DNA from: Anaerolineae bacterium | GTDB taxonomy: Bacteria > Chloroflexota > Anaerolineae > J102 | DNA length: 64,000 bases | Assembly: GCA_026991225.1 (NCBI GenBank) | Contig: JALXCB010000044.1 | Coordinates: forward strand, 6,490-70,489 | Direction of reading: 5' to 3' | Part shown: positions 4,184-59,726 of the stretch, in pieces | How the letters are laid out: each line of letters begins with the position of its first letter | Numbering within the stretch: position 1 is the stretch's first letter | The notes under the pieces: model-generated | Databases searched by the model: none | Seen by the model: only the letters and a program-made list of their open reading frames with translations | What the model was told of the DNA's origin: nothing | Position numbers and translations under genes: made by a program

Positions 4184-5317
4184 ATGAACCGCTCGCATCT
4201 CCGTTTCCTCCCTCCCCTGCTGCTGGCCGCACTGGTGGCCCTCCTCCTGGCCGGGCTGGCCGCGGCGGGCGGGCCGGGCGTCGGGCCTGCGGCCGTCCCC
4301 CGCCTGGATCCCCCCGCGCCCGTCAACATCACCTTCGACAGCGACGTCCTTTCCGTGGCCGTCCAGGGCGATTACGCGTATGTGGGTTTGGAAAAAGCAG
4401 GCGTAGCCGTTCTTGACATTTCCGATCCCTTGCACCCCATTATCATAAGCACCTTCGATGATCCCGATCCTTCCGGGCTGAATTATGTGGATGAGCTCAT
4501 TCCCAATGGGGATATCCTGATCATTCCCTATGGCTCTGTCTTTTACGTCGTCGATATCAGCGACCCCGCTCATCCCGCCTGGCTCAGTTATAGTCATGAT
4601 GCGGCTTACGAACTGAAGGCCATGGCCCTTTACGACCAGCGGGCTTACGGCCTGGGACCGGACTCCTTCGAGATTTGGGACCTCCAGGACCCCTCCTCGC
4701 CCCAGTTGTTGTACAGCATGCGGGATCAGTACCACCGCCTCTTTTCGGATATGCAGCAGATCGCGGTCGCCCGCAACCCCGCAGATGGCCGCATCTACGC
4801 CTACATGACCGGCGAGCCCCTCTGTTTCCACGACTGCATAGGCAATGGCCTGGTTTTCGTGGATGTGACCGACCCCTCCCAGCCCCAAGTCGTCTACACT
4901 TCAAGGTGGAATGGAGTCACGCTGGCCGCCCAAGAGGAGTATCTCTATTGGAGCGATTCGGATGCCAGTTTGCAAATCCTTGGTCTTACCGACCCGCGAC
5001 AACCAGAACTGTTAAGTCGCATCGATTTAGCCGATATTGGCTTTGCGATGGATAGGAAGGGGAATAGGCTTTTCCTTGCCCTGGCATACGGAGAAGATGG
5101 CCAGATCGATGTTATAGATGTGACTAACAAGACGAAGCCCACTTCCATGACAAGGTATGAAGACGTGAAACACGGGAAAAGTCTATCTCATTCGGATGAA
5201 ACAGGCTGCCTGTTCGTGGCGGAGCTTAGCCGCGGCCTGCGCATCCTTTGCGACATCAACGCCAATCCCCAACCCCCCGCCCAGGTCTGGCTGCCCCTAA
5301 TTGGAATCCAGGGATAG
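4184..5317 (+). CDS. secreted LVIVD-repeat protein, tandem paralog 3
   Basis: Same signal peptide; 3' two-thirds almost identical at DNA level to paralog 2 (3296-3944 vs 4675-5270). Confidence 0.75.
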   Translation: MNRSHLRFLPPLLLAALVALLLAGLAAAGGPGVGPAAVPRLDPPAPVNITFDSDVLSVAVQGDYAYVGLEKAGVAVLDISDPLHPIIISTFDDPDPSGLNYVDELIPNGDILIIPYGSVFYVVDISDPAHPAWLSYSHDAAYELKAMALYDQRAYGLGPDSFEIWDLQDPSSPQLLYSMRDQYHRLFSDMQQIAVARNPADGRIYAYMTGEPLCFHDCIGNGLVFVDVTDPSQPQVVYTSRWNGVTLAAQEEYLYWSDSDASLQILGLTDPRQPELLSRIDLADIGFAMDRKGNRLFLALAYGEDGQIDVIDVTNKTKPTSMTRYEDVKHGKSLSHSDETGCLFVAELSRGLRILCDINANPQPPAQVWLPLIGIQG

Positions 5318-5340: not shown

Positions 5341-8300
5341 ATGGTGAACGTCATCCGACAACGTTTGCTCATGGTCATTATGTTGGTCGCGTTGGCAGGC
5401 ATTTTGCTTCATGTGACCGCCAGGTCCAGCGATCTCGCCGTGGCCAGGAACCAGGCCGCGACGCCGCCGACCGCAACCACGCAGCCCAAGCTGAAGGAAT
5501 TCCTCGATGAAGCGCCTTTTCCTCGAATTTATGCTTTCTATCACAACGCGACATCCTGTGTTTCTGGGGGCCAAAAGGCATACTTTGTTGACCAGATGAA
5601 GTATGTCAATGTGGCGGAACTGCACTATCAGTTGGGCGGCGCCAAAACCGAATCCAGTTGGTGGAGATATCGATATTCGAAAATCGATGTCAATGACAAT
5701 GGCAATTGCGATGACCCGGATGACATGCGTGTCGTCGACTGGTTGGAAAAGCAATGGAGAGATATGCCCGCTAACGCCCACGGCGTCTCAATTCCCCACT
5801 ATCAACTGGCGTTTCTGCCTCTTTGGTATTTCAAAGAGGATGATGCCAGTGGTTTCGACGTTATGCACCGCAGAACCATCGATGACTGTGACGCTGCTTA
5901 CACCTTCATTCCTACACCCACCCCTACCCCCACGAATGCAACGCCTCCAACCCCTGGAGGACCGCCCACGTCCACGCCAGTACCCACCGCAACCCCTGAC
6001 GCTGACTATCTTGAGAAACAGGTCTGGGCCTTGCACGCAGCAACGAATGGCGATGTCATGAGATGGCGGGATGGCGCCAATTTGGCGTTAATCAACGTTT
6101 ACGCAGGCACGCCCATTGCGACTTCGGTGGTCATCCGTTGCGACACCCGCATTACCGAAGGACTGATCCCGGCAGAAACACCGGCGCCGCGCACCTATCA
6201 CGAATGGATGCCACTGTGGGTGGATGCCCGCATCGGCGAAACGCAGTTGGATAACGACCCAAATGAAATCAATCCATGGGATGGCATCCGCATCGACTCT
6301 CAGGCCAATCTCTTCTCCTGGGCCAGGCAAGCGGATTTCGATCTCGATGGACATCTCGATATACGGAAAGAAGAGAGTGGTGGATATGACGACAAGAATG
6401 ATACAGCTTTTGGGCGCCATTATCTCGATGATCTCTATCAGCAGGGAGTGGACAAGCTATTCCAAAACATCTATCAATATCATCCTGGCGAATGGCTCAT
6501 GGGAGGCAATGACGCCTGGCATCCCAATGGGAGCAGCCCCGATGACCCCTCTGGCTTTGGCGAACTGCCTAACATGCATTTCACTATCGCTGAAAACTGG
6601 ACGAAGGATTGGGGGAGTAATGGGCAGTACCATTTTATGCGCTGGCCCAATCCCGATGACGGAGGTTATTCTTCCAACGTAACATTCAGCAAAGCCGTTC
6701 GCATCTGGGACAACTGGGCCCATCACGGAAACGGTCGCAAAGGCTATGTCATTCTATCGAAATGTGACGATGCAGCGAATGATTGCTTGTCCCTTCCCAG
6801 CCAGACCGATGAGACAACCTATGGCTGGGATGATATGCACCGGGAATTCCGCTTCAGCCTGGCTGCGGCGCTGATGCTGGATGCATATCATGCGTTTACG
6901 GGCGCGGGCTATGACATGACGCCCTACTGGTACGACGAGTACGCGGTCATTTGGGATGACAGCAAAGCCCAAGCCGCCCGCACCAACGATGAAAAAGCCA
7001 AAGGCATTGGCTGGCTGGGATATCCGATTTCTGCTCCTTTAGAAGTGGACAGTAGCGGACATGTAACGGGTGTCAACTTGTGTTCGGCAATTGATGGCTG
7101 GCGCAAGGCAACGCCTACTCCCACGCCCGCTCCCGGTGAGACTCCGACACCTAAACCTGCAACAGCCTGGATTCGTTACTTCGAGCATGGCGTGGCCATT
7201 TTGAATCCATCCTCCAATGATATTACAGTGGAGTTGGACCCAAACACGACATATTACCGTATTCAGTGTTCCAGTGGAGGCGGCTCAACGGTTAACGCCG
7301 AGGTTGATTGCCACACCAATAACGGCCAGCCAGTGGACAACCATCAGGTGACGGTTGAGGCGCACGATGGTCTGCTCTTGTATGGCGAAGCGAATCAAAC
7401 GGATAAAATCGCCATTAGCGCATCGCAATATGACATCCAATATTGGGAGGGGCCGGAGTTATTGATCGATGACCGGGGCGAACAAACATGGCAATGGGGC
7501 AATAGAACGGACGAGACCAGTCCCACCATCAGCATCGCGAACGATGAACTGCGCGAGGTGGTTTCCGGCAGGTTGATTTTTCACATCAACGACCCCGATT
7601 TGCAAATGGATATCAAAAATGGAGACATTGTCGACGCCTTTTTGAGCTTACGAACAGATGCCAATCTCAATGACGCATCCATGTGGCTTATCGCTCAAAA
7701 ATCCGCCGAAGACGCTGAGGAGAATTTTCAGAAAATCTTATGGATTGATCCCAATCTGCAGGGACAGGGATGGCATCGCTCACCATCATTGCGAGAGGCT
7801 TTGATCGAGCTTGCCGACCAATCTGGATGGAATGGTCATGTCGAATTTTTCCTTGTTCCCACAGCCTTCAACCACCAATTGGTCTTCGACGCTTACGATA
7901 AAGCAGTGACGAACGCCCCTACACTGGTGATTCTCCGGAAAAAAGTGAGAAGCACCCCATGCGTTACGGAGAATACAACGGGGCCTTATCAGGCCACCTA
8001 CCAACACGGCGTCAACGGCTACTATGGCGGCGAGGACACTTACATCGTCACCACCGACTGGGAGCCCCCCACCACCCACGACACCTTCCCCGCGCTCTAC
8101 ATCCGCGTCAACTACCCCAACGAGCAAATTCACTCCTCCCTCATCCGTTTCAACAACGCCACGCTCCCCGCCGGTGCGGAGATCGTCAAGGCCCAGCTCG
8201 ACATGTTCTACGCTGGGCAATCGGTCAATGGCGGCGACCTCACCGCCTATGTGGCCTACACCAAAGAGCCCTGGAAAGCCTCCGAGACCACCTGGGTCAA

Positions 8301-8595: not shown

Positions 8596-8735
8596 TACCT
8601 TGACAATGTCACATTACGTCATTCCGAGGGAGCGAAGCGACCGAGGAATCTAGCCCGCAGGGCGCTTCGCTAGATTCCTCCGCCCTTCGGTCGTCGGAAT
8701 GACGTGCTTGGAGGTAATTTGACATTGTCGAACTA
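8596..8735. repeat. large imperfect palindrome / stem-loop downstream of the 1108-aa gene
   Basis: Arms GGTAACTACCTTGACAATGTCACATTACGTCATTCCG and its imperfect reverse complement flank an internally palindromic loop (GAGGAATCTAGC...GCTAGATTCCTC). Confidence 0.6.
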
Positions 8736-8744
8736 CTCAGGTGT

Positions 8745-8949
8745 CGCCACCACTTTTTGCCGCGAAGACACGAAGGAAACGAGGGCGCAAAGTCATCCAA
8801 AAAAGGTAACTGCTAAGGTAGTTGGCCCCAATCGCCCCTTTTTTGCCACGAAGACACGAAGGAAACGAAGGCGCGAAGTCATTCAAAAAAGATTTTATCC
8901 GTGTTTCCTCGTATCCGTGTCGAGTGAACAGGGCTACGTTAGCAGTTAT
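8745..8949. mobile_element. MITE-A variant copy (8806-8949) preceded by a partial tandem half-copy (8745-8805)
   Basis: GTAACTGCTAAGGT ... ACGTTAGCAGTTAT; internal sequence matches the outer element at 24178; lies between convergent gene ends. Confidence 0.7.
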
Positions 8950-8953
8950 AGTT

Positions 8954-9496
8954 TCATGTTGCTGACTGCGCGCCATAATGAAACGCGCCGGGAAAATCTT
9001 CGGCAACTTGTTTCTGCTTGCCGATCCACGTTTCGATATCGAGACGAATCACGGCTGTGATCTTCAGGTCTTCGGGTTGGGCGGGAAGGTAATCCGCGTC
9101 TGGTTGCAAATGGGGCGCGTACTTGTCCATGATCATCTGCAAGGCCCGTGCCGCTTCCTCCCCCTCCACCAGGCTCGCCCGCCCGAACAGCATGACGCTG
9201 GCGTATTCCACGCTGAAATTCAGCGCCCGTTTCGCGGGCAGCAACCGGCCCATGCGGAAGACCGTGGCCGACGCCTTGGGATGGTTCCGGGCCAGCGCCG
9301 CGGTGCGCCCCTGGTTGGTGGCGTGGATGTACACCACGCGCCGGGCTTCGTCAAAGGCATACAGCGTGGGGAAGAGAAAGGGCTGATCGTCCTGGCAAAA
9401 GCCCAGCGTGATCACGGCTTCCTCACGCAAAAAATCGGTGATCCAGGCGTCATCGGTGATGGCCCGGTCCTTGCGTCGAATGTTGGTCAGACTCAT
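8954..9496 (-). CDS. pyridoxamine 5'-phosphate oxidase-family FMN-binding protein
   Basis: ~180 aa [33 protein letters not shown]...; PNPOx-like split-barrel pattern; start ATG overlaps pdxT stop (ATGA). Confidence 0.7.
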
Positions 9497-10101
9497 GCTG
9501 TTTGCACCATGTGGAGGAAGTAGCGGTGGAAGCGGAGGTCGTCGCTGAGTTCGGGGTGGAAGGCGGTGCCCAGGAGATGGCCTTGTCGTACGGCCACAAT
9601 GGGCCCGTTCTCGGGCAGTCGGGCCAGCACCTGCACCTCCGGCCCGACTTCGACCACCGCGGGGGCGCGGATGAAGATGGCGTGGAAGGGGCCGTCGGGG
9701 TCTTCGGGGCGGGCGACTTCGGCCAGCGCGGGCACGTCCAGATCGGCTTCGAAGCTGTCCACCTGCCGCCCGAAAAAATTCCGATCTACGGTAATGTCCA
9801 GCCCGCCGATGAGGGGCTGCCCGCCCTTCTTCTGCCGCACGGCCCGATTCGCCAGCAGGATGAGGCCGGCGCAGGTGCCCCAGGCTGGCTTCTGACGGGT
9901 GAAAGCCTTCAGCGGCTCCAGCAGACCGAAGGATTCGGCCAGCTTGCCCATGGTGGTGGACTCGCCGCCAGGGATGATGAGCGCGTCCAAATCGTCGAGA
10001 TGCTCGGGCAGACGCACCTCGGGCGCGTCCACGCCCAGGGCTTGGAGCTTGAGGATATGTTCTCGAAACGCCCCTTGCAGGGCCAAAACGCCGATTTTCA
10101 T
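9493..10101 (-). CDS. pdxT: pyridoxal 5'-phosphate synthase glutaminase subunit PdxT
   Basis: [16 protein letters not shown]...[10 protein letters not shown]...GTCAG; class I glutamine amidotransferase of PdxT type. Confidence 0.9.
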
Positions 10102-10150
10102 AGGCTAAACGTCCTCTTGCATCGGAAATGATAACGGAGTAAAATGTGGT

Positions 10151-10390
10151 ATGACCATCGTCACATGGCATGAAATGAAACAATCTTTTAGAAAATATCT
10201 GCAACGAGTCAAACAGGGGGAAACGTTGCTGGTGGTGGAGGACGGACGCCCCGTAGCCGAAATGCGGCCCGTTGTGGAGGATGAAGCGCGCCTGAGGCCC
10301 TTCGGATTATGCGCTGGCGAATTCCATGTGCCTGACGATTTCGATAAACCACTTCCTGAAGAAGTCCTCGCATTATTTGAAGGGCGATGA
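10151..10390 (+). CDS. type II antitoxin (Phd/YefM-like, VapB partner)
   Basis: 79 aa, MTIVTWHEMKQSFRKYLQRVKQGETLLVVEDGRPVAEM; 4-bp overlap with the downstream PIN toxin. Confidence 0.6.
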   Translation: MTIVTWHEMKQSFRKYLQRVKQGETLLVVEDGRPVAEMRPVVEDEARLRPFGLCAGEFHVPDDFDKPLPEEVLALFEGR

Positions 10391-10791
10391 GGTTATTACT
10401 CGACACCCACATCTTTCTGTGGTACATCGCCGGCGAAAGGAAGATCAGCGAATCGATCCTTGCCATGATCCGTGATCCGGACAATCAGGTGTATCTGAGT
10501 GTGATTTCGGAGTGGGAAATCATCATCAAGCATCAGTTGGGACGGCTTCCTTTGCCTGCATCACCCGGCGTCTACATTCCTGCACAACGTCGCAGACACC
10601 GCATTGACGTCCTATCGCTGGATGAGGATGCAGTGAGTGCATTGGGGGAATTACCCGCAATTCATCGCGATCCATTTGATCGCATGTTAATCAGTCAGGC
10701 AATGTATCATGGATTGATTCTGGTCACTGTTGATAGAGTCGTCATGAAATATGGGGACGTGATGAACGTGCGGATGCTGTTGGCGAATTGA
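10387..10791 (+). CDS. vapC: PIN-domain toxin VapC
   Basis: MRLLLDTHIFLWY... PIN acidic residues; followed by hairpin plus T-tract terminator. Confidence 0.8.
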   Translation: MRLLLDTHIFLWYIAGERKISESILAMIRDPDNQVYLSVISEWEIIIKHQLGRLPLPASPGVYIPAQRRRHRIDVLSLDEDAVSALGELPAIHRDPFDRMLISQAMYHGLILVTVDRVVMKYGDVMNVRMLLAN

Positions 10792-15100: not shown

Positions 15101-15458
15101 GCCCATCACCGCCCGCGTGCCCATCACGCAACCCGACGGCACGGTCACGTACGAACAACGTCCCATCAGCACGGTCGAGGCCGATCCCGACGATCCCAAT
15201 CGCATCATTCTTACTGCCACCAACGGTTTCGGCATCATCCACGACACCAAAGGTTACACCGAAACGCACGTCATCAAGGCCGTGGCCTACGACGTGGCCG
15301 GAAACAAGGCCGAAAGCCAGCCCGTGCGCATCTTCGTCATCCACAAGGAAGGCAAAGGTCCCAAGCCGCGCGGGCAGGAAGGCCGCCTCCCCGATCTGGA
15401 TGACCCCACCCGTTACGCTCTCCGCCCCATTGTATCATGGAACGAACGGCATCTTTGA
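12120..15458 (+). CDS. bifunctional class A penicillin-binding protein (PBP1A: GT51 transglycosylase + transpeptidase) with long C-terminal Ig-like extension
   Basis: GT51 motifs ALEDRSFWENPGIN, SSITQQLVKN; transpeptidase SSFKP (SxxK) and KTGTT; ~400-aa C-terminal extension. Confidence 0.9.
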   Translation: MKRLTDQATSRLTDHPMNLPSKIYLHRRRQERLHRAQMPAWQKLLGVAAIALFVFITLTVTATASVAAVAGGVYYYFTRNLPDPSAIVTKQENFETVKIYDRTGKVLLYESIDPRPFRGDRTYVTLDQISPYLINATVALEDRSFWENPGINLRGIGRAFVQNLQGGAIQGASSITQQLVKNVIIPPEERYQRSYTRKIKEMLMALKITQKYDKTQILEWYLNNNFYGNFSYGIESAAQTYFGKPAKDLNLAEAAMLAALPQFPGLNPIQAPEDAKRRQRKVLQAMVEAGYITQEQADEAYAQELDVRESALERFDNDIAPHFALYVLDQLKKEFNTPEDPYFIWRNGLTVRTTLDVDIQHYVTCVARQRVAHLAHEDPTIPGCPDLDPEPFLQSGKHSKIDHNVSNAAVVVLAPKTGEILSMLGSLDYNNREIDGEVNIALADRQPGSSFKPITYLTGFSQGLTAATVAWDVRQVFPDAVEPYTPENYDRKYHGPVPLRVALQRSYNIPAVWVMSQVGVKNVVNMAHRLGVTSLNKDYYGLSLTLGGGEVKLLDMAYVFATFANMGVMKGEPVLPQDLRPGYRTLDPVAILEVKDREGNIVKEYEGPQEQRVISEQLGYLLDNVLSDPRPRPPAFGTFAQYLELPDRPIIAKTGTTNDFRDGWTLGASPQYAVGVWVGNADNTPMESTSGSVGASPIFHDIMAYLHKDKPVEKWEEPDGFVRRTVCYESGLLATDICPRRYTEIFIDGTEPKEYDNFWQVFEVNKLNGKLATPYTPPDLIERRVYPVFPPVAKDWAQEQAELGKIQLPPTEYDDTFGPVFTDEEVAIAKPAPFSYIKGQVEIWGNARSGDFRLYQLHFGQGLQPQTWTQIGPDHYNQVDKGVLEYWDVSGLSGPYTLRLSVVENSGNVRQVAIPITVDNTPPTVVLSTPENGKVYVKEDDEWVNINALATDDWAMDRVVFYLDDTPLITTTVSPYSAKWTITMSDTVPTLDMEPITARVPITQPDGTVTYEQRPISTVEADPDDPNRIILTATNGFGIIHDTKGYTETHVIKAVAYDVAGNKAESQPVRIFVIHKEGKGPKPRGQEGRLPDLDDPTRYALRPIVSWNERHL

Positions 15459-15808
15459 TGCATACGCCATCGGCGATACCCTTTCTGGATGAAATCGTCG
15501 CCCGATTAGAAAGCATCGATCCAGAGAAAATCATCCTTTTCGGCAGCCAGGCGGAAGGTCGCGCCGACCCATGGAGCGATTTGGACCTGATTGTTGTGAC
15601 AAGCGACGACCGAATGCCTGCTACGTATCGGGAGAAAGAAGAAATTTACCTGCAAGTCTCGCGCCTGATTCGAGACATCCGACAGAAAATCCCCATCGAT
15701 CTCATCGTGCACACCCGGCCCATGCATGAGCGCTTTCTCACCATGAACAGTCTCTTCGCACAAGAAGTCCGGGAAAGAGGCCTGGTGCTCTATGAAAAAG
15801 ACCACTGA
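15458..15808 (+). CDS. minimal nucleotidyltransferase (MNT) antitoxin-type protein
   Basis: LFGSQAEGRADPWSDLDLIVV nucleotidyltransferase motif; ATG overlaps PBP stop (TGATG). ORF-track alternative start 15437. Confidence 0.75.
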   Translation: MHTPSAIPFLDEIVARLESIDPEKIILFGSQAEGRADPWSDLDLIVVTSDDRMPATYREKEEIYLQVSRLIRDIRQKIPIDLIVHTRPMHERFLTMNSLFAQEVRERGLVLYEKDH

Positions 15809-16187
15809 AGAATGGCTGGCCAAGGCCGCGGAAGACCTTTTGGCTGCGGAACTCCTGCTATCGCAATGGGAACTGACCAATATCGTGGCTTTTCATGCGC
15901 AGCAAACGGTTGAAAAGGCGTTCAAAGCCGCGATTGAAGAACTGGAACTTGGTCTAATTCGCACCCACAGTCTGACGCGACTCTACCAGCTCATCGAATC
16001 AGAATTTCCCGTAGTTGATGACCCTGACATGTTAGACCGTCTTGATGCGGTTTACATTGAGGCGCGCTATCCCAGCGAGCTTGGCCTGATCCCATCGGGC
16101 AAACCAACCAGTGAGGAAGCGGCTGCTTTTCATGCGTTTGCCACCCGTGTTTTGAAGCAGATTCAAACAGCCCTGACCCAACGCTAA
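15792..16187 (+). CDS. HEPN-domain protein (partner of MNT)
   Basis: 131 aa helical protein with GLIRTHSL HEPN-like motif; overlaps MNT gene end. Confidence 0.75.
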   Translation: MKKTTEEWLAKAAEDLLAAELLLSQWELTNIVAFHAQQTVEKAFKAAIEELELGLIRTHSLTRLYQLIESEFPVVDDPDMLDRLDAVYIEARYPSELGLIPSGKPTSEEAAAFHAFATRVLKQIQTALTQR

Positions 16188-16193
16188 TTTCTC

Positions 16194-16970
16194 ATGCCTC
16201 ACATTCTCATCACCAATGACGACGGCGTACACTCGCCCGGCCTGCTGGCCCTGGCCCAGGCCCTGTGCGACCTCGGTCAGGTCAGCATCCTCGCGCCCGA
16301 CCGCAACTGGTCGGTCACGGGCCACAACAAGACCCTGCACAAACCCCTGCGGGTCTGGCCCGTCACCCTGGACGACGGCAGCCAGGCCCTGACTACTGAC
16401 GGCGGCCCCTCCGACAGCGTGGCCCTGGCCGCGATGGGCGTCGTGGACCTGCCCATCGATCTGGTGGCCTCAGGCATTAACACTCGCCCCAACCTGGGCG
16501 ACGATATCACCTACTCGGGCACGGTGGCCGCGGCCATGGAAGCCGCCATCTTCGGCATCCCCGCCATGGCCATTTCTCAGGAAGAAGGCGAGCCCCGGCG
16601 CTGGGAGACCGCGGCCCGCGCGGCCGCCATCATCGCCCGCAAGATGCTCGCCAACGGCGGCATGCCCAAGGGAACCCTGCTCAACGTCAACGTTCCCAAC
16701 CTGCCCTGGGACGAGATCAAGGGATTCGAGGTCACCCGGCTGGGCCAGCGACGCTACCATGACGAGCTCATCGTGCGCCACGACCCCGGCGGCAGACCCT
16801 ATTACTGGATCGGCGGCGGGCCTCCCTCCAGCGTGCTGGAGCCTGGAACCGACGTCCACGCCCTGGCCCACGGCTTCATCTCCGTCACCCCCCTCAGCCT
16901 CGACATGACCCACGACGCCTTCCTTACCACCCTCCGCCAGTGGTTCGAGCCGTCTCTTACAAATCCTTGA
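16194..16970 (+). CDS. surE: 5'/3'-nucleotidase SurE
   Basis: MPHILITNDDGVHSPGL N-terminus diagnostic for SurE. Confidence 0.9.
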   Translation: MPHILITNDDGVHSPGLLALAQALCDLGQVSILAPDRNWSVTGHNKTLHKPLRVWPVTLDDGSQALTTDGGPSDSVALAAMGVVDLPIDLVASGINTRPNLGDDITYSGTVAAAMEAAIFGIPAMAISQEEGEPRRWETAARAAAIIARKMLANGGMPKGTLLNVNVPNLPWDEIKGFEVTRLGQRRYHDELIVRHDPGGRPYYWIGGGPPSSVLEPGTDVHALAHGFISVTPLSLDMTHDAFLTTLRQWFEPSLTNP

Positions 16971-17190
16971 GCAATTGCTGAAACGCCTCGGGTGTGAGCT
17001 CTATCTCGCGCAAAATCTCACGGATGAGCGGTCGCGCCAGGTCTCTACCGCGATGATGAGGCAAGGTCGTTGTGCGGCCATCTGGATGGCGATAAAATGC
17101 ATGGCTGCCTCGCTGCCTGACCTTTTCAAATCCGAGCCGGAACAACAGTTTTTCCATCGTCTTTGCATCGACGATCGGCAACCGAGTCAC
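16957..17190 (-). CDS. hicA: HicA-family toxin (mRNA interferase)
   Basis: 77 aa, KLLFRLGFEKVRQRGSHAFYRHPDGRTTTLPHH; YcfA/HicA pattern. Confidence 0.8.
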   Translation of the reverse strand: MTRLPIVDAKTMEKLLFRLGFEKVRQRGSHAFYRHPDGRTTTLPHHRGRDLARPLIREILREIELTPEAFQQLLKDL

Positions 17191-17408
17191 CCTGCCACCT
17201 CGATCTGCTGAATGCCCACAAATTGCGGCATGATTTCCAGAATATCCTCTTGTTCTTCCAGACAGAGTTCAAGAACCTCTTTCAGGTTCCTTTGTAATTC
17301 GTCAAGCGTCGCGCCCTGAGTATGCGCGCCAGGAATGCCAGGCACGATGCCAACATAGAGTCTGGTGTCTGGATCGTATTCGATATATGCTGTAAAGACT
17401 TTCATCAT
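17187..17408 (-). CDS. hicB: HicB-family antitoxin
   Basis: 73 aa UPF0150-like; 4-bp overlap with hicA. Confidence 0.75.
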   Translation of the reverse strand: MMKVFTAYIEYDPDTRLYVGIVPGIPGAHTQGATLDELQRNLKEVLELCLEEQEDILEIMPQFVGIQQIEVAG

Positions 17409-22636: not shown

Positions 22637-22659
22637 GGTGGCTCCTGTTCCGAAGATAG

Positions 22660-22835
22660 CGTTGCGTTGGTTTGCAAAAGCAACTCGAAGCCCGCGTTGG
22701 GCGAGTCTGCAACGGGCGTGATGCGTGAAAACGTGGAACGTGAGAGCGTTACGCATCACGCATTACGCATCACGTGCTTGGCTTCCCGCGCGGCCCTGGC
22801 CGCGGGGCGTTTTCGTTCGTCTCGGCGAACCGCCG
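22660..22835. repeat. family-B REP-like element (CGTGATGCGTGAAAACGTG...TTACGCATCACG hairpin core with GGCCGCGrGGCGTTTTCGTTCG tail)
   Basis: Homologous copies at about 24525-24665 (inverted), 42083-42240, 42425-42525 (inverted), 43720-43830, 45035-45180, 57060-57215; degenerate variants at 10860-10930, 38870-38990, 63120-63195. Confidence 0.75.
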
Positions 22836-22984
22836 CTGTGAATTGCGTCATTCCGCCTCTGATTGTCCATCCCTTGCCTTGAAATGTCAAGGCGGGATGA
22901 TCCGAGTTTCCAGTGAATGGAGACTGGCTTACCGAACGTTGTCAGATCATGCTTTCTGTGCTATGATCCATCTGTATTCATTGT

Positions 22985-24471: not shown

Positions 24472-24714
24472 GATTCCGAATCCAATTTCCACGGCCGGTA
24501 GCGCGCAAAGCCGGCGATACGAGCAACGGCTCGCCGATGCGAACGAAAACGCCTCGCGGCCAAGTCGGCGCGGGAAGCCAAGCACGTAATGCGTGATGCG
24601 TAACGATCTCACGTTTCACGTTTTCACGCATCACGTCCGTAGCAGACTCGCCCAACCTCGTCCTGGCGTTCCTCAATCCTAATCCTGATCCTACTCCTAT
24701 TTATCAAAGCAGCC

Positions 24715-27681: not shown

Positions 27682-27836
27682 GTAACTGCTAACGTACTTG
27701 ACTTTAGACCGCCAAAAGCCACGAAGGCTCGAAGTTTTTCGAAGCCACGAAGGAAAAAATAAAGAAAAATACGTCGTGCCTTCGCTTTTCTTCGTGTCTT
27801 CGTGGCAAAAAGTGGTCGCGATACCTTAGTAGTTAC
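27682..27836. mobile_element. MITE-A copy (155 bp) with 8-bp TSD GTTTTCGG, inserted in a family-E repeat
   Basis: TIRs GTAACTGCTAACGT / ACCTTAGTAGTTAC; direct repeat 27674-27681 = 27837-27844; the uninterrupted family-E copy at 60293-60475 (reverse complement) has a single GTTTTCGG at this point. Confidence 0.85.
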
Positions 27837-28117
27837 GTTTTCGGCCTTGGCCACCCGGAGCTGAAACTCCGGGCTACGAAACGACGCCGGGTGAACCCGG
27901 CTTTCCGCGGCGCGCGACATGCGCCGTAGCCCCATTGATGGGGCGTCGTTATTAGCCCGCAGGTGAACCTCGGGCGGCGGTGCGGCCAGAGAATCGCCTT
28001 TCATGGATGATCCAATGCAAATCAAAAGCCTTGGTTTCAATTTGCTTTCAGTTTAATGCGTTGAATGCAGACGGATGCCTCACTCGATAGCATCCATTTA
28101 TCTGCTATCATCACGCG

Positions 28118-28277: not shown

Positions 28278-29963
28278 ATGCCTTTGTTCAATGAGGAACA
28301 TCTTCAGCGCCTGAGCCAGACGCTCAATCGCTGGAAGGAAACAACCCTGCGCAAGACCCTGGAGAGGCGGCCCGAGCGGTTGAAAAAATTCATGACCACC
28401 TCGTCTCGCCCGGTCAATCGGCTTTACACGCCGCTGGATATCGCGGATTTCGATTACGAGCGGGCGTTGGGAATGCCGGGCGAGTATCCTTTCACTCGGG
28501 GCGTGCACAGCACCATGTATCGGGGGCGCTTGTGGACCATGCGCATGTTTGCGGGGTTCGGCACGGCGGAGGAGACCAATCAGCGTTTCAAATATCTGCT
28601 GGAACAGGGCCAGACGGGCCTTTCCGTGGCTTTCGACATGCCCACCCTCTACGGCTACGACACCGACGCGCCCGAGGCCATTGGCGAATTCGGCAAATGC
28701 GGCGTGGCCATCTCCTCCCTGGCCGATATGGAATTGCTGTTCGATGGCATCCCCATGGGCGAAGTCAGCACCTCCATGACCATCAACTCGCCCGCGGCCA
28801 TCATCTGGGCCATGTATATCGTGGCCGCGGAGAAGCAGGGCTACGACCGCCGCATCCTGCGGGGCACCATCCAGAACGACATCCTCAAGGAATTCATCGC
28901 CCAGAAGGAGTTCATCTTCCCGCCCGATCCCTCCATGCGGCTGGTCACCGACACCATCGAGTTCGGGACCCGCGAGATGCCTTACTGGAACACCATCAGC
29001 ATCAGCGGCTATCATATCCGCGAAGCGGGGGCCACCGCAGCCCAAGAGCTGGCCTTCACCCTGGCCGACGGTTTCGCCTATGTGGAGGCGGCGCTGGAGC
29101 GGGGATTGGATATCGACGCCTTCGCGCCCCGGCTCTCCTTCTTCTTCAATGTCCATAACGACTTCTTCGAGGAGATCGCCAAATTCCGGGCCGCGCGACG
29201 CATCTGGGCCCGGGCCATGAAGGAGAAGTATGGCGCCAAGAACCCGCGCTCCTGGATGCTGCGCACCCACGCCCAGACCTCGGGCGCATCCCTCACCGCG
29301 CAGCAGCCCGAAAACAACATCGTGCGGGTGGCGATTCAGGCCCTGGCCGCGGTGCTGGGCGGCACGCAGAGCCTGCACACCAACAGCATGGATGAGGCCC
29401 TGGCCCTGCCCAGCGAAAAGGCGGTGACTATCGCCTTGCGCACCCAGCAGATCATCGCCCACGAATCGGGCGTGGCCAACACGGTCGACCCCCTGGCGGG
29501 CTCCTACTACATCGAGAAACTGACCGACGAGATGGAAGCGGACGCCAATCGTTATTTCCAGGCCATTGACGCCATGGGCGGCGTCATCCGCGGCATCGAA
29601 TCGGGTTACTTCCAGCGCGAGCTGGCCGAATCCGCCTACCGTTATCAGATGGAGATCGACAATCGGGAGCGGATCGTGGTCGGCGTGAACGAGTATGTGG
29701 CCGAGGAGCCGCTGGAGATTCCGCTGCTGGAAATGGACCCCGAAGGCTACGACCGTCAGGTGGCCCGGCTGAACCGGGTGCGGGCGGAGCGAGACAACGC
29801 CGCGGTGGAAAAAGCCCTGCGCGAGCTGGAGGACGCGGCTCGCGGCGACGAGAACCTCATGGTTCCCATCATCGAGGCGGTGCGGGCCTACGCCACCCTG
29901 GGCGAGATGATGGGCGTCTTCCGCAAAGTCTTCGGCGAATACCACGAGCCTGTGTTCTTCTAA
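28278..29963 (+). CDS. mcmA: methylmalonyl-CoA mutase, catalytic (large) subunit, split form lacking the B12 domain
   Basis: [61 protein letters not shown]; ATG 28278 with GGGAGG SD. Confidence 0.9.
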
Positions 29964-30013
29964 TGGACATGGTGCAATCTTTGTAGTACAATTGTATTGC
30001 AAAGAGGTGCAAA

Positions 30014-30313
30014 ATGACCGAGTTCATCACGACAAATATCCGTCTTCCAGTACAATTGCATCGCGAGCTAAAACGTCGCGCGGCGGAGGAGAACAAAAGC
30101 ATGGCGCAAGTGTTGCGCGAGGCTGCGGTGCAATACATCGCGTCAGCCAAAACTTCCAATCACGAGGAGATGGAAGCAAGAGATGATGATCCTTTGTGGC
30201 TGATCGGGACTGATCCTGTGGATCTGGGGGTGACGGATGCTTCCGTGAACCACGATGTCTATCTTTATGGTCCGCTTTCGGATTCGGCCAAAGCTGAGAT
30301 CACAGAAAAATGA
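30014..30313 (+). CDS. ribbon-helix-helix-type antitoxin (VapB-like)
   Basis: NIRLPVQLHRELKRRAAEENKSMAQVLREAAVQY RHH pattern; 4-bp overlap with PIN gene. Confidence 0.55.
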   Translation: MTEFITTNIRLPVQLHRELKRRAAEENKSMAQVLREAAVQYIASAKTSNHEEMEARDDDPLWLIGTDPVDLGVTDASVNHDVYLYGPLSDSAKAEITEK

Positions 30314-30729
30314 GACCCCTTTTCGTTGATACCGCAGCCTGGTTGGCATTGGAATCTCGAAGGGATCAATACCATGATGTCGCCTTTGCGTTTGCACAAA
30401 ATCAGGCACGAGCATTTCAATGGGTCACGACGAATTGGATATTATCCGAAACCGTGACGATGCTACGCAGACGCGCCAACCATGCCATTGCCGTCCGTTT
30501 TATGGAGCGAGTGCGCGCAAGTAAACGATTGCAGATTGTACGTATTGAGCCTCCCCACGAGGAAAGAGCCTGGGTAATTTTCAAGCGTTATGCCGACAAA
30601 GACTTTGGATTTGTGGATTGCACCAGCTTTGCCGTTATGGAGACCTTTGGCATTGCCGAGGCCTTTTCGTTTGACCATCATTTCCGGCAATTTGGATTTC
30701 AAACGCTTCCCCTTCATGCGTTGAGGTAA
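30310..30729 (+). CDS. vapC: PIN-domain toxin VapC
   Basis: [23 protein letters not shown]...; stop 2 nt before the start of the MCM B12 subunit. Confidence 0.75.
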
Positions 30730-30731
30730 TC

Positions 30732-31136
30732 ATGGATAGAAAAGTACGCGTCTTAGTCGCCAAACCGGGCCTGGACGGCCACGATCGCGGGGCCAAGGTC
30801 ATCGCCCGGGCCCTGCGCGACGCGGGCTACGAAGTCATCTACACCGGCATCCGCCAGACGCCCGAGATGATCGCGGAGGCCGCGCTGCAAGAGGACGTGG
30901 ACGTGGTGGGCCTCTCCATCCTTTCGGGCGCGCACATGGCCCTGGTGCCTCGCGTTATCGAGGAGCTGCGGCGGTTGGGCATGGAGGATGTGGTCGTGCT
31001 GGTGGGCGGCATCATCCCCGATGAGGATGTGCCCGCGCTGCTGGATATGGGCGTGGCGGGCGTCTTCGGCCCCGGCACCCTCACCTCCGAGATCGTGGAA
31101 ACCATCGAGAACGCCCTCGGCCGCGAATTGGCGTAA
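30732..31136 (+). CDS. mcmB: methylmalonyl-CoA mutase B12-binding (small) subunit
   Basis: [33 protein letters not shown]; DxHxxG cobalamin-binding motif. Confidence 0.85.
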
Positions 31137-31192: not shown

Positions 31193-32215
31193 ATGACCCC
31201 ATCCACCGTCCCCGAACTCGTCGACGCCCTGCTCGCGGGCAACCGTCGCGCCCTGGCCCGCGTCATCTCCCATATCGAAAACAACACCGACCTGGCCCGA
31301 CCTCTCCTGGCCGCGCTCTATCCCAGGGCGGGGCGGGCGCACATCATCGGCGTCACCGGCTCTCCCGGCACGGGCAAATCCACCCTGGTCAACGTCCTGG
31401 CCGGGGTCTATCGCCAGCGCGACCTCACCGTGGGCGTCATCGCCATCGACCCCACCAGCCCCTTCAGCGGCGGCGCCCTGCTGGGCGACCGGGTGCGGAT
31501 GCGCGATCTGGCGGGGGATCCAGGCGTATTCATTCGATCCATGGCCACGCGCGGCAGTCTGGGCGGGCTGGCCCAGGCCACCGCGGACGTGATCATGGTG
31601 CTGGACGCGGCCGGCTTCGACCGCATCATCATCGAGACGGTGGGCGTGGGGCAGAGCGAAGTGGAGATCGCCAGCGCCGCCTACACCACCGTCGTGGTGG
31701 AAGCCCCCGGCCTGGGGGATGAAGTCCAGGCCATCAAGGCAGGCGTGCTGGAGATCGCGGATATCTTCGCCGTGAACAAGGCGGACCGGGAGGGCGTGGA
31801 CCGCACGGTCATGGCCCTGAAAATGATGCTCAGCCTGGGCGCGCCCGAGAAGTTCCAGGTGATGCATCATGGCCGGATGCTGCCCGTGGAGATTCCCCAG
31901 GCCCGGACGGAGTCCCATGCCTGGACGCCTCCCATCATCAAGACCATCGCCGTCTCGGGCGAAGGCGCGGTCGAACTGGCCGACGCCATCGAGAATCACC
32001 GCCTCTATCTGGAGCAGAGCGGCGGTCGGGTGTTGCGAGATCGACTGCGGGCCGCCACCGAGCTGCGCATGATTTTGCGCGATTACCTGCTGGAAAAACT
32101 CCTGGCCCGCACGCCCGAAGACGTGCTGAAACAGACCATCGACGCCGTCGCCCGCCGTGAGATCGATCCCTACACCGCGGTGCAACAGTTGGTCGATCAA
32201 GTTCGTAACTGCTAA
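31193..32215 (+). CDS. meaB: methylmalonyl-CoA mutase-associated GTPase MeaB/ArgK
   Basis: GVTGSPGTGKSTLVNVL P-loop; last three codons and stop lie inside a MITE. Confidence 0.9.
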   Translation: MTPSTVPELVDALLAGNRRALARVISHIENNTDLARPLLAALYPRAGRAHIIGVTGSPGTGKSTLVNVLAGVYRQRDLTVGVIAIDPTSPFSGGALLGDRVRMRDLAGDPGVFIRSMATRGSLGGLAQATADVIMVLDAAGFDRIIIETVGVGQSEVEIASAAYTTVVVEAPGLGDEVQAIKAGVLEIADIFAVNKADREGVDRTVMALKMMLSLGAPEKFQVMHHGRMLPVEIPQARTESHAWTPPIIKTIAVSGEGAVELADAIENHRLYLEQSGGRVLRDRLRAATELRMILRDYLLEKLLARTPEDVLKQTIDAVARREIDPYTAVQQLVDQVRNC

Positions 32216-32358
32216 GGTCGCGCCGCCGCTTTTTGCCACGAAGACACGAAGAAAACAAAGGCACGACGTATTTTTCTTTATTTTTTCCTTCGTGGCTTCG
32301 AAAAACTTCGAGCCTTCGTGGCTTCTTGTGGCCTTAAGTCGAGTACGTTAGCAGTTAC
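32205..32358. mobile_element. MITE-A copy with TSD TCAAGTTC, inserted in the last codons of meaB
   Basis: TIRs GTAACTGCTAAGGT / ACGTTAGCAGTTAC; TSD 32197-32204 = 32359-32366; meaB stop TAA lies in the TIR. Confidence 0.85.
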
Positions 32359-42059: not shown

Positions 42060-42316
42060 AGCGTCCTCCTGTTTCGGAAGTGGCGTTGCGTTGGTTTACA
42101 AAAGCAACTCGAAGCCCGCGTTGCGCGAGTCTGCAGCGGACGTGATGCGTGAAAACGTGAAACGTGAGAGCATTACGCATCACGCATTACGTGATTGACT
42201 TCCCGCGCCAACCTGGCCGCGAGGCGTTTTCTGCATCCCAGGATACCCCCCAACCATTCACAAAATGTGATGCGAATGTAAAAAATGTGTCATCCCCCGC
42301 CGCCCAACGGACAAAG

Positions 42317-42390
42317 TGGGGCCCCTCGGGCTTGAACCGAGAACCGGCGGTTTATGAGACCGCTGCTCTAACCACTTGAGCTAGGGCCCC
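42317..42390 (-). tRNA. tRNA-Met (anticodon CAT)
   Basis: Reverse complement folds as cloverleaf: acceptor GGGGCCC/GGGCCCC, anticodon loop CTCATAA, T-loop TTCAAGC; CCA not encoded. Confidence 0.85.
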
Positions 42391-42576
42391 CTATGTGGTT
42401 GCACGCCCCATCGAAAAAACGCTTTGTTGGCGCGGGAAGCCGCGTCGTGAAACGTGATGCGTGATGCGTAACGTTATCACGTTTCACGCATTACGTTTCA
42501 CGTGAGTTGCCGCCTCGGCCAACTTTGGCTTGACGAACCTTTCGCCATCTGCGCCAACGCGCTATCTTCAAAGAAG

Positions 42577-42647
42577 AGCGGGCAACGGGATTCGAACCCG
42601 TGACGAGAGCTTGGAAGGCTCTAGTGTTACCACTACACCATGCCCGC
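42577..42647 (-). tRNA. tRNA-Gly (anticodon TCC)
   Basis: Acceptor GCGGGCA/TGCCCGC, anticodon stem AGAGC/GCTCT with loop CTTCCAA, T-arm GGGTTCGAATCCC. Confidence 0.85.
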
Positions 42648-42792
42648 GCGGAAAACAGTCATCCGTGATGGACATAGAAATTCTACACAGGATCGCGGGA
42701 AATGACAAGTCGAGAAGGAGCACAGATCACAATCTCCCTTCTCTGTGTTCTCTGTGCGATCTCAGTGAACTCGGTGTTCCTCTTTCAAAAAA

Positions 42793-42866
42793 GTCGGGGA
42801 GGCCGGATTCGAACCGACGACCTCTTGGACCCAAACCAAGCGCGCTACCGAACTGCGCTACTCCCC
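42793..42866 (-). tRNA. tRNA-Pro (anticodon TGG)
   Basis: Acceptor CGGGGAG/CTCCCCG, anticodon stem CTTGG/CCAAG loop TTTGGGT, T-arm GTCGGTTCGAATCCGGC. Confidence 0.85.
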
Positions 42867-42872
42867 GATGGG

Positions 42873-43001
42873 AGTAACTGCTAACGTACTCGACTTCAGG
42901 CCACAAGAAGCCACGAAGGGGAAAATAAAGAAAAATACGTCGTGCCTTCGTTTTCTTCGTGTCTTCGTGGCAAAAAGCGGCGGTGCGACCTTAGCAGTTA
43001 C
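42873..43001. mobile_element. MITE-A short variant (129 bp) with TSD CGATGGGA, 6 nt from the tRNA-Pro 5' end
   Basis: TIRs GTAACTGCTAACGT / ACCTTAGCAGTTAC; TSD 42865-42872 = 43002-43009. Confidence 0.85.
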
Positions 43002-43656: not shown

Positions 43657-43855
43657 TCTCTGGAAGTTGTCATTTGGAATGAAAAGCGCGCGCCAGCAAG
43701 ATGGGCGCGGGCAGCCAAAGCCGTGAAACGTCATGCGTGATGCGTGACCATCTCACGCGTCACGATTTCACGCATCACGCCCGTTGCCGCCTCGCCCAAC
43801 GTCAGCCTGGCGGGCCTTTCGCAGACGGCGCCAACGCTCTGGACGAAACAGCACC

Positions 43856-44992
43856 ATGAAGATCGCCATCGATTACACGCCCGCGGCGTTGCAAGGCGCG
43901 GGGATTGGCCGCTACACCCGGGGGCTGGTGGATGCGCTTCTGCCTTTGTTGGGGGAGGATGACCAACTGACGCTGCTGTACCCGCGCGGGGATGCGCCCT
44001 TCGCCCGCGCGTCCTGGCCCGAGCGCGTACGCGTGCGCCGCCTGCCCCTGCCCGACCGCTGGCAGACCATCCTCTGGCATCGGCTGCGCGCGCCCCTGCC
44101 GGTGGACTGGTGGACGGGCGACGTGGATATCTTCCACGCGCCCAACTTCCTGCTGCCGCCTGTGCGCCGGGCCAAAACCCTGCTCACTATCCACGACCTA
44201 GCCTTCATGGTGCGGCCGCAGTACGCCTTTCCCGACCTGCGCCGCTTTCTGGAAAAGGCCGCGCCCCGCTCCATCGCCCGCGCCGACCATATCCTGGCCG
44301 ACTCCGAGGCCAGCCGTCAGGACGCCATCCGCCTGTTCGGGTTGGAGCCGCAGCGGGTGACGGTGGTGGGCGCGGGGGTGGAGCCCCGCTTCCGGCCCCT
44401 GCCGCCCGAAGAGACCGCAGCGGTGCGGGGGAAGTACGGCCTGGACGGGCCCTTCGTCCTCTCGGTGAGCACCATCGAGCCCCGCAAAAATTTCGACGGG
44501 CTGGTGCGGGCCTTCGCCCAGGCCCGACGGGAGGCCCGTTTCCCCCATCATCTCGTCATTGCCGGGGGCAAAGGCTGGCTCTACGAGCCGGTCTTTCGGG
44601 CAGTGGAGGAGGAAAACGCGGGGGATATCGTTCACTTTTTGGGATTCGTTCCGGACGAAGACCTGCCCGCGCTGTACAACCTGGCCGAGCTGTTCGCTTT
44701 TCCAAGCCATTACGAGGGCTTTGGCCTGCCCGTATTGGAAGCGCTGGCCTGCGGAACCGCGGTGATCTGCACCGACGTCAGCAGTCTGCCCGAGATCGCG
44801 GGCGATGCGGCCCTGCTCATCCCGGCCGACGATCACGACGCCCTGGTTGTGGGCCTCCTCCGCCTGCTCACCGACGCCGACGCGCGGGACGAGTTGGCCG
44901 CCCGCGGGCCTGCCCGGGCTGCTCACTTCACATGGGACGCGGCCGCGCGCCGCTTGTGGGACGCCTATCGGGCCGTGATTGGATTGCGTTGA
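43856..44992 (+). CDS. GT4 (group 1) glycosyltransferase
   Basis: MKIAIDYTP...; C-terminal EGFGLPVLEALACGTAVICTD motif. Confidence 0.85.
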   Translation: MKIAIDYTPAALQGAGIGRYTRGLVDALLPLLGEDDQLTLLYPRGDAPFARASWPERVRVRRLPLPDRWQTILWHRLRAPLPVDWWTGDVDIFHAPNFLLPPVRRAKTLLTIHDLAFMVRPQYAFPDLRRFLEKAAPRSIARADHILADSEASRQDAIRLFGLEPQRVTVVGAGVEPRFRPLPPEETAAVRGKYGLDGPFVLSVSTIEPRKNFDGLVRAFAQARREARFPHHLVIAGGKGWLYEPVFRAVEEENAGDIVHFLGFVPDEDLPALYNLAELFAFPSHYEGFGLPVLEALACGTAVICTDVSSLPEIAGDAALLIPADDHDALVVGLLRLLTDADARDELAARGPARAAHFTWDAAARRLWDAYRAVIGLR

Positions 44993-45224
44993 AGATGGAG
45001 TGATCGCTGGTCGTTGAAGGATCGCCAGGATTACGTTGGCCGAGGCGGCAACGGGCGTGATGCGTGAAAACGTGATACGTGAGGTCTTCACGCATCACGC
45101 ATGACGTTTCACGTCCTTGGGTTCCCGCGCCACACGGGCCGCGAGGCATTTTCATCGGTATGGGCGAGCTTTCGCCTGTGTCGACCGATTTGTAAGCGGA
45201 TGCGTCCCAAATTATTGGCAGACA

Positions 45225-52382: not shown

Positions 52383-52535
52383 GTAACTACTAACGTACTC
52401 GATTTCAGGCCTCGAAAAGCCACGAAGGCTCGAAGTTTTTCGAAGACACGAAGGAAAAATAAAGGAAAAACTTCGTGCCTTCGTTTTTCTTCGTATCTTC
52501 GTGGCAAAAAGCGGTGGCGAGACCTTAGTAGTTAC
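52383..52535. mobile_element. MITE-A copy with TSD AAAAAATC, inserted in a family-C repeat
   Basis: TIRs GTAACTACTAACGT / ACCTTAGTAGTTAC; TSD 52375-52382 = 52536-52543. Confidence 0.85.
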
Positions 52536-59697: not shown

Positions 59698-59726
59698 GAA
59701 CTATCCTTGTTCCCCCATAAACTTCT

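Follow-up and report, generated by a model that had tools for sequence, protein, structure and literature searches.

The DNA described here is a 64,000-nucleotide stretch, hereafter the window, of contig JALXCB010000044.1 (positions 6,490 to 70,489) from the assembly of an Anaerolineae bacterium (GCA_026991225.1), in which a toxin-antitoxin gene pair of the VapBC type was found between the two subunit genes of a split acyl-CoA mutase. Along the plus strand, the gene for the large (catalytic) subunit is followed by those for a ribbon-helix-helix (RHH) antitoxin, a PIN toxin, the B12-binding small subunit and a MeaB-type G-protein chaperone of the mutase (Table 1). Domains were called as Pfam profile matches, with gathering cut-offs, on translated open reading frames (ORFs). 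Both the coordinates and the Pfam domains bear out the preliminary description of the window, which had placed an RHH antitoxin and a PIN toxin between the catalytic and B12-binding subunit genes. The related contigs and loci used for comparison carry names of the form L001, and WIN denotes the window's own locus.

The large-subunit ORF ends with a TAA codon at 29961-29963 and is followed by a 50-bp gap (29964-30013) ahead of the antitoxin gene. The stop codon of the antitoxin gene and the start codon of the toxin gene overlap as ATGA, and the antitoxin-first order of the co-oriented genes is the same across all related loci. As had been claimed, the toxin gene stops 2 nt ahead of the ATG of the B12-subunit gene, and the Shine-Dalgarno sequence of the latter, GAGG, falls inside the last PIN codons; with this gap and this ribosome-binding site the pair is, as also proposed earlier, closely joined to the genes downstream. 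To judge from sequence, the two genes make up an intact VapBC-type module of the type II toxin-antitoxin class, ordinary as a module and unusual in the stability of its context.

Table 1. Features of the mutase operon and of the remainder of the window (coordinates are those of the window).
Feature	Position	Strand	Remarks
Acyl-CoA mutase large (catalytic) subunit	28278-29963	+	561 aa from ATG at 28278; Pfam MM_CoA_mutase, E 3e-232; TIGR00641
Predicted sigma-70-type promoter of the pair	29964-29992	+	-35 TGGACA 29964-29969, 17-nt spacer, -10 TACAAT 29987-29992
Candidate VapB operator	29978-30005		Core palindrome TACAATTGTA at 29987-29996 overlaps the -10; 28-nt imperfect palindrome, 12/14 arm positions complementary
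Antitoxin Shine-Dalgarno AGAGGTG	30003-30009	+	Read from the sequence; relatives have GGAGGTG at the equivalent place
VapB-type RHH antitoxin	30014-30313	+	99 aa; Pfam RHH_1, 22.6 bits (cut-off 20.5)
Second operator-like copy AGTACAATTGCATCGC	30049-30064		Inside the antitoxin gene, 64 bp downstream of the first; repeat 14/16 identical
VapC-type PIN toxin	30310-30729	+	139 aa; Pfam PIN, E 1.4e-13, 51.9 bits (cut-off 23.6)
Toxin/B12-subunit junction	30723-30734	+	Shine-Dalgarno GAGG 30723-30726, TAA 30727-30729, 2 nt, ATG 30732-30734
B12-binding small subunit of mutase	30732-31136	+	134 aa; Pfam B12-binding, E 9e-29; TIGR00640, E 2e-57
MeaB-type G-protein chaperone of mutase	31193-32215	+	340 aa; Pfam MeaB, E 1.7e-92, 309.7 bits
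Phd/YefM-like + PIN module	10151-10791		Beside pdxS
MNT + HEPN module	15437-16187		After PBP1A; start overlaps the PBP1A 3' end
HicA/HicB module	16957-17408		After surE; convergent on the surE 3' end
MITE-like repeat, copies bracketing the whole mutase/toxin-antitoxin operon	27682-27836, 32205-32358		Opposite orientation
MITE-like repeat, further copies	near 8729-8890, 42907-43001, 52383-52535, 59545-59708, 62797-62950		
Second repeat family	22642-22837, 24522-24686, 42066-42231, 43683-43851, 44981-45131, 57012-57160		
Third repeat family	27837-27970, 60314-60447		
Cluster of three tRNA genes	42317-42867	-	Sole Rfam matches in the window

Relatives were collected by a scan for the large subunit with one genome per species, which gave 80 loci, the closest of them from Chloroflexota/Anaerolineae, and by a search with the PIN protein, which returned 42 clusters forming a tight family (53-91% identity), below which identities dropped to 51% or less. 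A homologous pair occupies the same junction in at least 23 distinct related Chloroflexota/Anaerolineae loci, with PIN identities to the window running from 91% to 44%. The values are 91% in L081-83, 81% in L084/85, 74% in L086/87, 62% in L088 and in a 54-kb JGI contig, 60% in L089/90, and 44% for the divergent pairs of L149 and L163; a pair is also found at this junction in L094-L103, L140 and L174-L177. The order large subunit, RHH, PIN, B12 subunit and MeaB is repeated in L008, and L001, the large subunit of which is 85% identical to that of the window, stops 134 nt past the large-subunit stop codon with an RHH-like start visible. Every family member with a PIN identity of at least 54% that could be placed on a contig lies between the large and B12 subunits, and PINs at 53% identity or less are mostly found elsewhere, the nearest being L091/P0042, L104, L105 and L092. 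In the outgroups, archaea included, the two subunit genes are 13-41 nt apart with no pair between them, which indicates that the pair is derived, that is, an insertion. The distance from toxin stop to B12-subunit start varies across relatives from a 4-nt overlap (L177, called genes) to 36 nt, and a junction TTGAGGTA(A/G) is common to L081, L084 and L086. An apparent truncation of the PIN gene in the gene calls of L175/L176 proved to be an artefact, as tblastn gives a full-length PIN.

Some loci depart from this arrangement. L086 (2180-2856), and likewise L087, encodes a further antitoxin (77-94 aa) and PIN protein (148-152 aa), unrelated to the resident pair and placed after the large subunit and ahead of that pair, so that the junction holds two toxin-antitoxin modules in tandem. 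On the 281-kb contig of L174 the RHH-PIN-B12-MeaB block is intact, but the large subunit upstream of it has shrunk to a remnant covering residues 32-94 (4679-4867); the deletion may be genuine or may stem from faulty assembly, this being a long-read contig with frameshifts in meaB. In L092 (5756-7170; also L093) a PIN protein of the wider family (47%) with an 82-aa partner adjoins a second VapB/PIN pair, and these toxin-antitoxin modules, again nested among functionally linked genes, separate draT from draG where a nif cluster ends.

Identities to the window of large subunit and PIN fall from 94/91% through 90/81, 89/74 and 76/60% to 74/52%. Between the window and L081, the synonymous divergence (dS) is 0.62-1.13 for the pair and 0.81-1.02 for the flanking genes, and the ratio of nonsynonymous to synonymous divergence (dN/dS) is 0.09 for the RHH gene, 0.04 for the PIN gene and 0.045 for the large subunit. 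These values indicate that both genes of the pair are under strong purifying selection, comparable to that acting on the mutase, which lends indirect support to growth arrest by the toxin and its neutralisation by the antitoxin. The pair evolves approximately 2-3 times faster than the mutase.

The G+C content is ~0.50 across exactly 29964-30731 compared with 0.63-0.69 in the neighbouring genes, and the G+C content at third codon positions (GC3) is 0.49-0.55 in the pair compared with 0.81-0.86 in the flanking genes. Such a low-GC island between high-GC genes, in a window which has three other toxin-antitoxin modules and many repeats resembling miniature inverted-repeat transposable elements (MITEs), two of them bracketing the operon, could suggest that a mobile toxin-antitoxin cassette was recently inserted into the operon by horizontal transfer, in this genome alone. 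Such an explanation is refuted in practice by the comparative data and is given almost no credence: pairs occupy the same junction in the 23 or more related loci, whose large subunits are as little as 74% identical to that of the window, the dip is present in every relative with a value equal to the intergenic G+C content of the window, and the dS of the pair equals that of the flanking genes in the comparison with L081. The dip was therefore rejected as a mark of recent transfer, which it cannot be once synonymous divergence is saturated, and it more likely reflects a lack of the codon-bias selection which acts on the neighbours; even a sharp dip is no proof that a gene arrived recently. The proposal that the pair had been inserted into the operon thus holds in part, in that distant relatives and archaea have adjacent subunit genes, but the insertion is not recent, having been inherited in at least 23 loci under purifying selection. 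Comparison of operon structure likewise gave a mixed answer, with the pair being absent in distant lineages, a retained operon member in the lineage of the window and, within the closest subgroup around the window, diverging along with the operon.

In a tree of the large subunits, all pair-bearing loci fall within one clade, the subgroups of which have 100% bootstrap support. L003, which has no pair, is sister to the pair-bearing L089 (100% bootstrap), and its 154-nt spacer aligns with the last PIN codons (QFGFDILPHLG-stop versus ELSFDTPRA-stop) and the PIN-B12 spacer of L089/L176. This alignment has a score of 71, with shorter, spacer-only alignments scoring 63-67 versus ~17 +/- 3 for shuffles. 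As the spacer matches the 3' end of a PIN gene, it is a deletion relic and the pair is absent from L003 by loss. The same spacer was also considered as a remnant of the 5' promoter of the module, which was rejected because the alignment places it at the PIN 3' end and the PIN-B12 spacer.

Instead of one ancestral capture, the junction might be a hotspot that took up related cassettes on repeated, independent occasions, which would also account for the distribution of the pair. The pairs of L163 and L149 are very divergent (PIN 34-44% to all others) and their large subunits group with that of L099 at 86%, the antitoxin N-terminus and upstream region of L001 differ from the others, L086 acquired its second pair, and between L084 and L086 the pair has a higher dS than the genes on either side. 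On the other hand, all pairs agree in gene order, in a TTNIRLP strand and a C-terminal motif of the antitoxin and in the position of the -10 element relative to the ATG, and identities drop in step with the operon in the subgroup of the window. Family members at 53% identity or less are mostly outside the mutase context, and the L003 relic represents loss, not original absence. Repeated insertion is regarded as very unlikely in comparison with a single capture.

The acidic catalytic residues of the toxin, D7, E47, D103 and D122, are invariant in 31 homologues. When the PIN family profile was compared with solved structures, the best match was VapC20 of Mycobacterium tuberculosis (5WZF), which was full-length with an E value of 4e-27, the next match being at 8.5e-10. 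The toxin is predicted to be a PIN endoribonuclease of the VapC20/26 group, closest to VapC20 by sequence, this likeness being distant. VapC20 and VapC26 cut 23S rRNA in its sarcin-ricin loop (PMC5175351).

An RHH DNA-binding domain at the N-terminus of the antitoxin is joined by a variable linker to a conserved C-terminal motif. An AlphaFold model has a strand at residues 4-12 and helices at 13-26 and 30-56, with a predicted local distance difference test score (pLDDT) of ~80 over residues 11-40 and a disordered C-terminus. A fold search with this model gave an RHH protein as every top match, VapB26 among them, each with E > 0.1, so that these matches serve as a check of consistency and none is individually significant. 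The sole PDB sequence match is likewise VapB26, at a non-significant E value of 0.37, and the Pfam match to the FitA-like RHH family is weak and sub-threshold (18.2 bits against a cut-off of 27). In an alignment of 31 sequences, TTNIRLP is near-invariant in the N-terminal strand, and the longer form EY(V/I)TTNIRLP remains so even where overall identity is 41%. It is the strand of RHH proteins that reads DNA, and by analogy this part of the antitoxin would do the same. The C-terminal motif DPLWLIGTDP..DVTDASVNHD.YLYGPLS is also strongly conserved and is inferred to be the toxin-binding part. An extra ORF of ~82 aa is present in L099 (2955-3200) between the PIN and B12-subunit genes; its HDCYLYG resembles NHD.YLYG of the antitoxin, and it may be an orphan antitoxin fragment.

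The predicted promoter of the pair, TGGACA-N17-TACAAT, is the top promoter-like match in the 27.6-32.5 kb interval, agreeing at 10/12 positions. Its -35 element begins at the base directly after the mutase stop codon, and its -10 element forms the left half of the palindrome TACAATTGTA. This palindrome has a single exact copy in the 64 kb of the window and 3 copies at one mismatch, where 0.26 are expected; one of these near-copies, at 30051-30060, lies within the antitoxin gene as part of the second operator-like copy of Table 1. The ACAATTG of the latter is kept only in the close subgroup formed by WIN, L081, L084, L094 and L086, where it falls in a V/K-Q-L codon context, and a secondary binding site there is possible, the evidence being weak and the assignment tentative.

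A TTGnnn-N17-TACAAT promoter with its -10 element ~27 nt before the antitoxin ATG is found in nearly all related loci, and the half-sites around it occur in three layouts. TACAATTGTA overlaps the -10 element in WIN, L081, L084, L086, L088, L008, L094 and L149; ATACAATTGTAT lies in the spacer and GATACAAT serves as the -10 element in L099-L101, L103, L174 and L177, the palindrome core being conserved in both of these groups; and a permuted form, ATTGT-N3-ATTGTACAAT, is seen in L089, L096, L097, L102, L175 and L176. The bases beside the operator core covary symmetrically as GG..CC, GA..TC or AA..TT (GGTACAATTGTACC, GATACAATTGTATC and AATACAATTGTATT). L001 alone is without a TACAAT motif, having GACGAT repeats instead, together with a different antitoxin strand (TLTVDL); as the protein strand and the DNA motif both differ in this locus, antitoxin and DNA site appear to change together. 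The three half-site arrangements and this one lineage would make the family a useful case of antitoxin-operator co-evolution. A related pair without mutase context, in L091, has its own promoter, TTGACA-N17-TACTAT, with an inverted repeat, which argues that the promoter is part of the module and arrived together with it. The palindrome in the 50-bp gap had been put forward as a candidate operator, and it remains a good one, being conserved in relatives whose proteins are 41-60% identical and overlapping a conserved -10 element; the TACAAT/ATTGTA palindrome is thus predicted, with good comparative support, to be the VapB operator. Read-through RNA of the control region could also form a hairpin (-28.1 kcal/mol, z -2.96) covering part of the antitoxin ribosome-binding site.

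The reading preferred here, with a probability of roughly 0.7, is that of a canonical autoregulated VapBC module which was captured once, has been vertically inherited, was lost at least once and is likely co-transcribed with the B12-subunit and meaB genes. The module would have entered the junction of the large and small subunits once, in the ancestor of a Chloroflexota (Anaerolineae) lineage, from which point vertical inheritance would have kept it as a fixed operon member, with a deletion removing it in at least one descendant. VapB would act as an RHH repressor whose C-terminal tail neutralises VapC and, alone or with VapC, would repress the promoter of the pair through TACAAT/ATTGTA half-sites overlapping the -10 element. 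Several points weigh against this account. The whole pair-bearing clade has a bootstrap value of only 52%, with its deep branches weakly supported, and L005, which has neither pair nor relic, falls inside it on weak support. Within the L008 subgroup the large subunits are 83-86% identical and the PINs only 34-66%, with L163 as an outlier, the dS of the pair between L084 and L086 (1.8-2.1) is above that of the flanking genes (0.5-0.7), and over all pairs of loci the identities of large subunit and PIN are weakly rank-correlated (Spearman 0.25). In addition, promoter, operator and co-transcription are predictions from sequence, and the sarcin-ricin loop as RNA target is extrapolated from a VapC20 match which is full-length but distant. 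Descent was probably not purely vertical, and faster evolution and probably some cassette exchange have to be added to the single capture.

A scan for intrinsic terminators between the genes gave 4 sites compared with 5.0 in shuffles, the PIN-internal site at 30645-30661 carrying no weight, and no riboswitch or other known RNA was found in the operon by Rfam. The absence of a convincing terminator, the 2-nt gap and the ribosome-binding site within the toxin gene suggest two probable sources of transcription for the B12-subunit and meaB genes, namely the operon promoter upstream and the autoregulated promoter of the pair.

Structures of other kinds were noted around the module in relatives. L099 has a perfect hairpin with a TTCG loop (GGTGCCAGGCACTTCGGAAGTGCCTGGCACC) at 2122-2152, between the large-subunit stop and the promoter, and similar hairpins are found upstream in L149 and L163. 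Other long hairpins occur in the gap after the large subunit in L010 and L003, and the GACGAT repeats of L001 are also present in the hairpin of L010. Between PIN stop and B12-subunit start, L089 (~6420-6435) and L176 (~5730-5745) have a 12-nt palindrome, ATTGTGC(A/C)CAAT, with operator-like half-sites, and in L089 the 3' end of the PIN gene further contains TTGACA-N17-TAAATT.

These observations touch on a further possibility, namely that VapBC has been co-opted as a conditional internal promoter or switch for the B12 subunit and chaperone, de-repressed by antitoxin turnover, with the association itself being selected. The conserved promoter and operator immediately precede the pair and, beyond it, the B12-subunit and meaB genes; strong hairpins separate the large subunit from the module promoter in L099, L149 and L163; the L003 relic bears a consensus-like TTGACA-N17-TACAAT before the B12 gene; and L089 and L176 have the operator-like palindrome just past the PIN stop. 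Together with the L174 remnant, these features hint that downstream expression is tied to the module, co-option being unproven. A convergent arrangement, mutB-mazE4-mazF4-Rv1496 (meaB), is found in M. tuberculosis (PMC8477398). Two convergent cases may, however, be due to chance given the abundance of toxin-antitoxin modules in these genomes, and many relatives do without the module. In the literature covered, searches gave no paper discussing the function of either arrangement (VapBC or MazEF4 in a mutase operon) and no report tying toxin-antitoxin modules to mutase regulation. It is considered unlikely that the module promoter now works as an internal promoter of the B12-subunit and chaperone genes, tied to the antitoxin/toxin balance, and that capture at the mutase/chaperone junction is recurrent and selected. 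If this were true, the cofactor-handling half of the enzyme would be supplied according to growth state or stress, and recurrent capture would have two instances, the VapBC of Chloroflexota and, in the mutAB-meaB operon of M. tuberculosis, MazEF4.

A more serious rival, although still a somewhat doubtful one, is purely selfish persistence, in which addiction and a tolerant junction would maintain the pair while it contributes nothing to mutase gene expression or function. In other phyla this junction holds unrelated inserts (a membrane protein, a hydrolase, a thioesterase-like protein, a GxxExxY protein), in L086/L087 a second unrelated antitoxin and PIN pair was added to it, L003 lost its pair without the B12-subunit gene being destroyed, and the window is generally rich in toxin-antitoxin modules. 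Set against this are the dN/dS values of 0.04-0.09 for both genes at saturated dS, which are evidence of constraint as strong as that on the mutase, and the L174 locus, where the large subunit is a remnant, yet pair, B12 subunit and meaB remain together. Moreover, in most loci the toxin stop and the B12-subunit start are 2-36 nt apart or overlapping, with the ribosome-binding site in the toxin gene, and with so tight a junction downstream expression would not be independent of the module.

The enzyme whose genes enclose the pair had been labelled a methylmalonyl-CoA mutase (MCM), which is doubtful, as both specificity residues of MCM are replaced. Tyr89 and Arg207 (P. shermanii numbering) bind the substrate carboxylate in MCM. 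The window has RMFAGF where MCMs have RQYAGF and FIAQKEF where they have FMVRNTY, giving the changes Tyr89 to Phe and Arg207 to Gln, and Phe and Gln are found at both positions in all of the homologous large subunits compared (88/88, a Chloroflexota/Acidobacteriota/archaeal group). The structure 5REQ is the Y89F mutant. The catalytic domain of the MM_CoA_mutase family and the B12-binding subunit expected of an MCM are present, and the MCM residues are not. Phe and Gln at these two positions are the signature of isobutyryl-CoA mutase (ICM), and those of the window align with residues 618 and 762 of the IcmF chain, which presumably correspond to Phe598 and Gln742 after subtraction of a 20-residue tag offset. 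Among solved structures, the large subunit scores best against HcmA (4R3U, 577 bits; MCMs ~499 bits), but the HcmA-specific Ile90 and Asp117 are absent, with Phe and Ala in their place. IcmA/IcmB, and the fused IcmF, resemble the window in the Phe/Gln positions and in having a large subunit of ~560 aa and a small one of ~135 aa followed by a MeaB-type GTPase, and differ in that the best-scoring solved relative of the window's large subunit is HcmA. Nothing on the mutase specificity residues was found in the literature covered by the search. The host enzyme is thus probably a split acyl-CoA mutase of the ICM type, served by a MeaB-type chaperone, and the methylmalonyl-CoA mutase label is probably wrong for the mutase of this widespread Chloroflexota/archaeal group.

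Elsewhere in the window, the three further toxin-antitoxin modules that had been reported beside housekeeping genes were all recovered (Table 1). One neighbour was given as pdxS/pdxT, of which pdxT could not be confirmed: the gene across the first module from pdxS (8954-10204, minus strand) matches Pyridox_ox_2 and is pyridoxamine-5'-phosphate-oxidase-like. The MITE-like repeat is intergenic and ~155 nt long, with terminal inverted repeats GTAACTRCTAA...TTAGYAGTTAC, and at least two other repeat families are scattered in the intergenic regions. Three tandem copies of a ~1.3-kb unit, 64-94% identical, occupy 1352-4426.

Chromosomal toxin-antitoxin modules are usually regarded as highly mobile, strain-variable passengers. 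The module described here has held one junction in a metabolic operon through family-level divergence, constrained like the enzyme itself, and so offers a natural system for asking whether such modules can become entrenched in housekeeping operons or be co-opted there as internal regulators. FitAB of Neisseria gonorrhoeae is an RHH antitoxin/PIN toxin module which represses its own promoter via an inverted repeat. Modules of this type share with the window the RHH antitoxin, the PIN toxin and a palindrome overlapping the promoter, the binding site in the window being a predicted one, and differ in that the window antitoxin matches FitA-like RHH proteins only below threshold. VapBC20/26 of M. 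tuberculosis are nearer, given the full-length match of the PIN family profile to VapC20, the four acidic catalytic residues and the overlapping, antitoxin-first genes. The similarity is nevertheless distant, as the window antitoxin is longer (99 aa) with a conserved C-terminal motif of its own, and the window pair lies inside a mutase operon and is fixed across its lineage. The module can thus be described as a member of the VapBC family closest to VapBC20/26, and what is unusual is its lineage-wide fixation in an operon with a conserved operator. With regard to context, mazEF4 of M. tuberculosis (Rv1494/Rv1495) follows mutB (Rv1493) after a 13-nt gap and overlaps Rv1496 by 4 nt (PMC8477398), Rv1496 being a MeaB family protein. 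It too is a type II pair which, with operon-tight spacing, immediately precedes an accessory gene in an operon for a B12-dependent acyl-CoA mutase. In contrast, its toxin is a MazF and not a PIN protein, it belongs to another phylum, the enzyme there is a true MCM, and, as the mycobacterial mutase has a fused B12 domain, mazEF4 lies between mutase and chaperone and not between mutase subunits. The M. tuberculosis mutB-mazE4-mazF4-meaB arrangement may accordingly be viewed as a convergent analogue of the window's operon, and it is the one known for this context.

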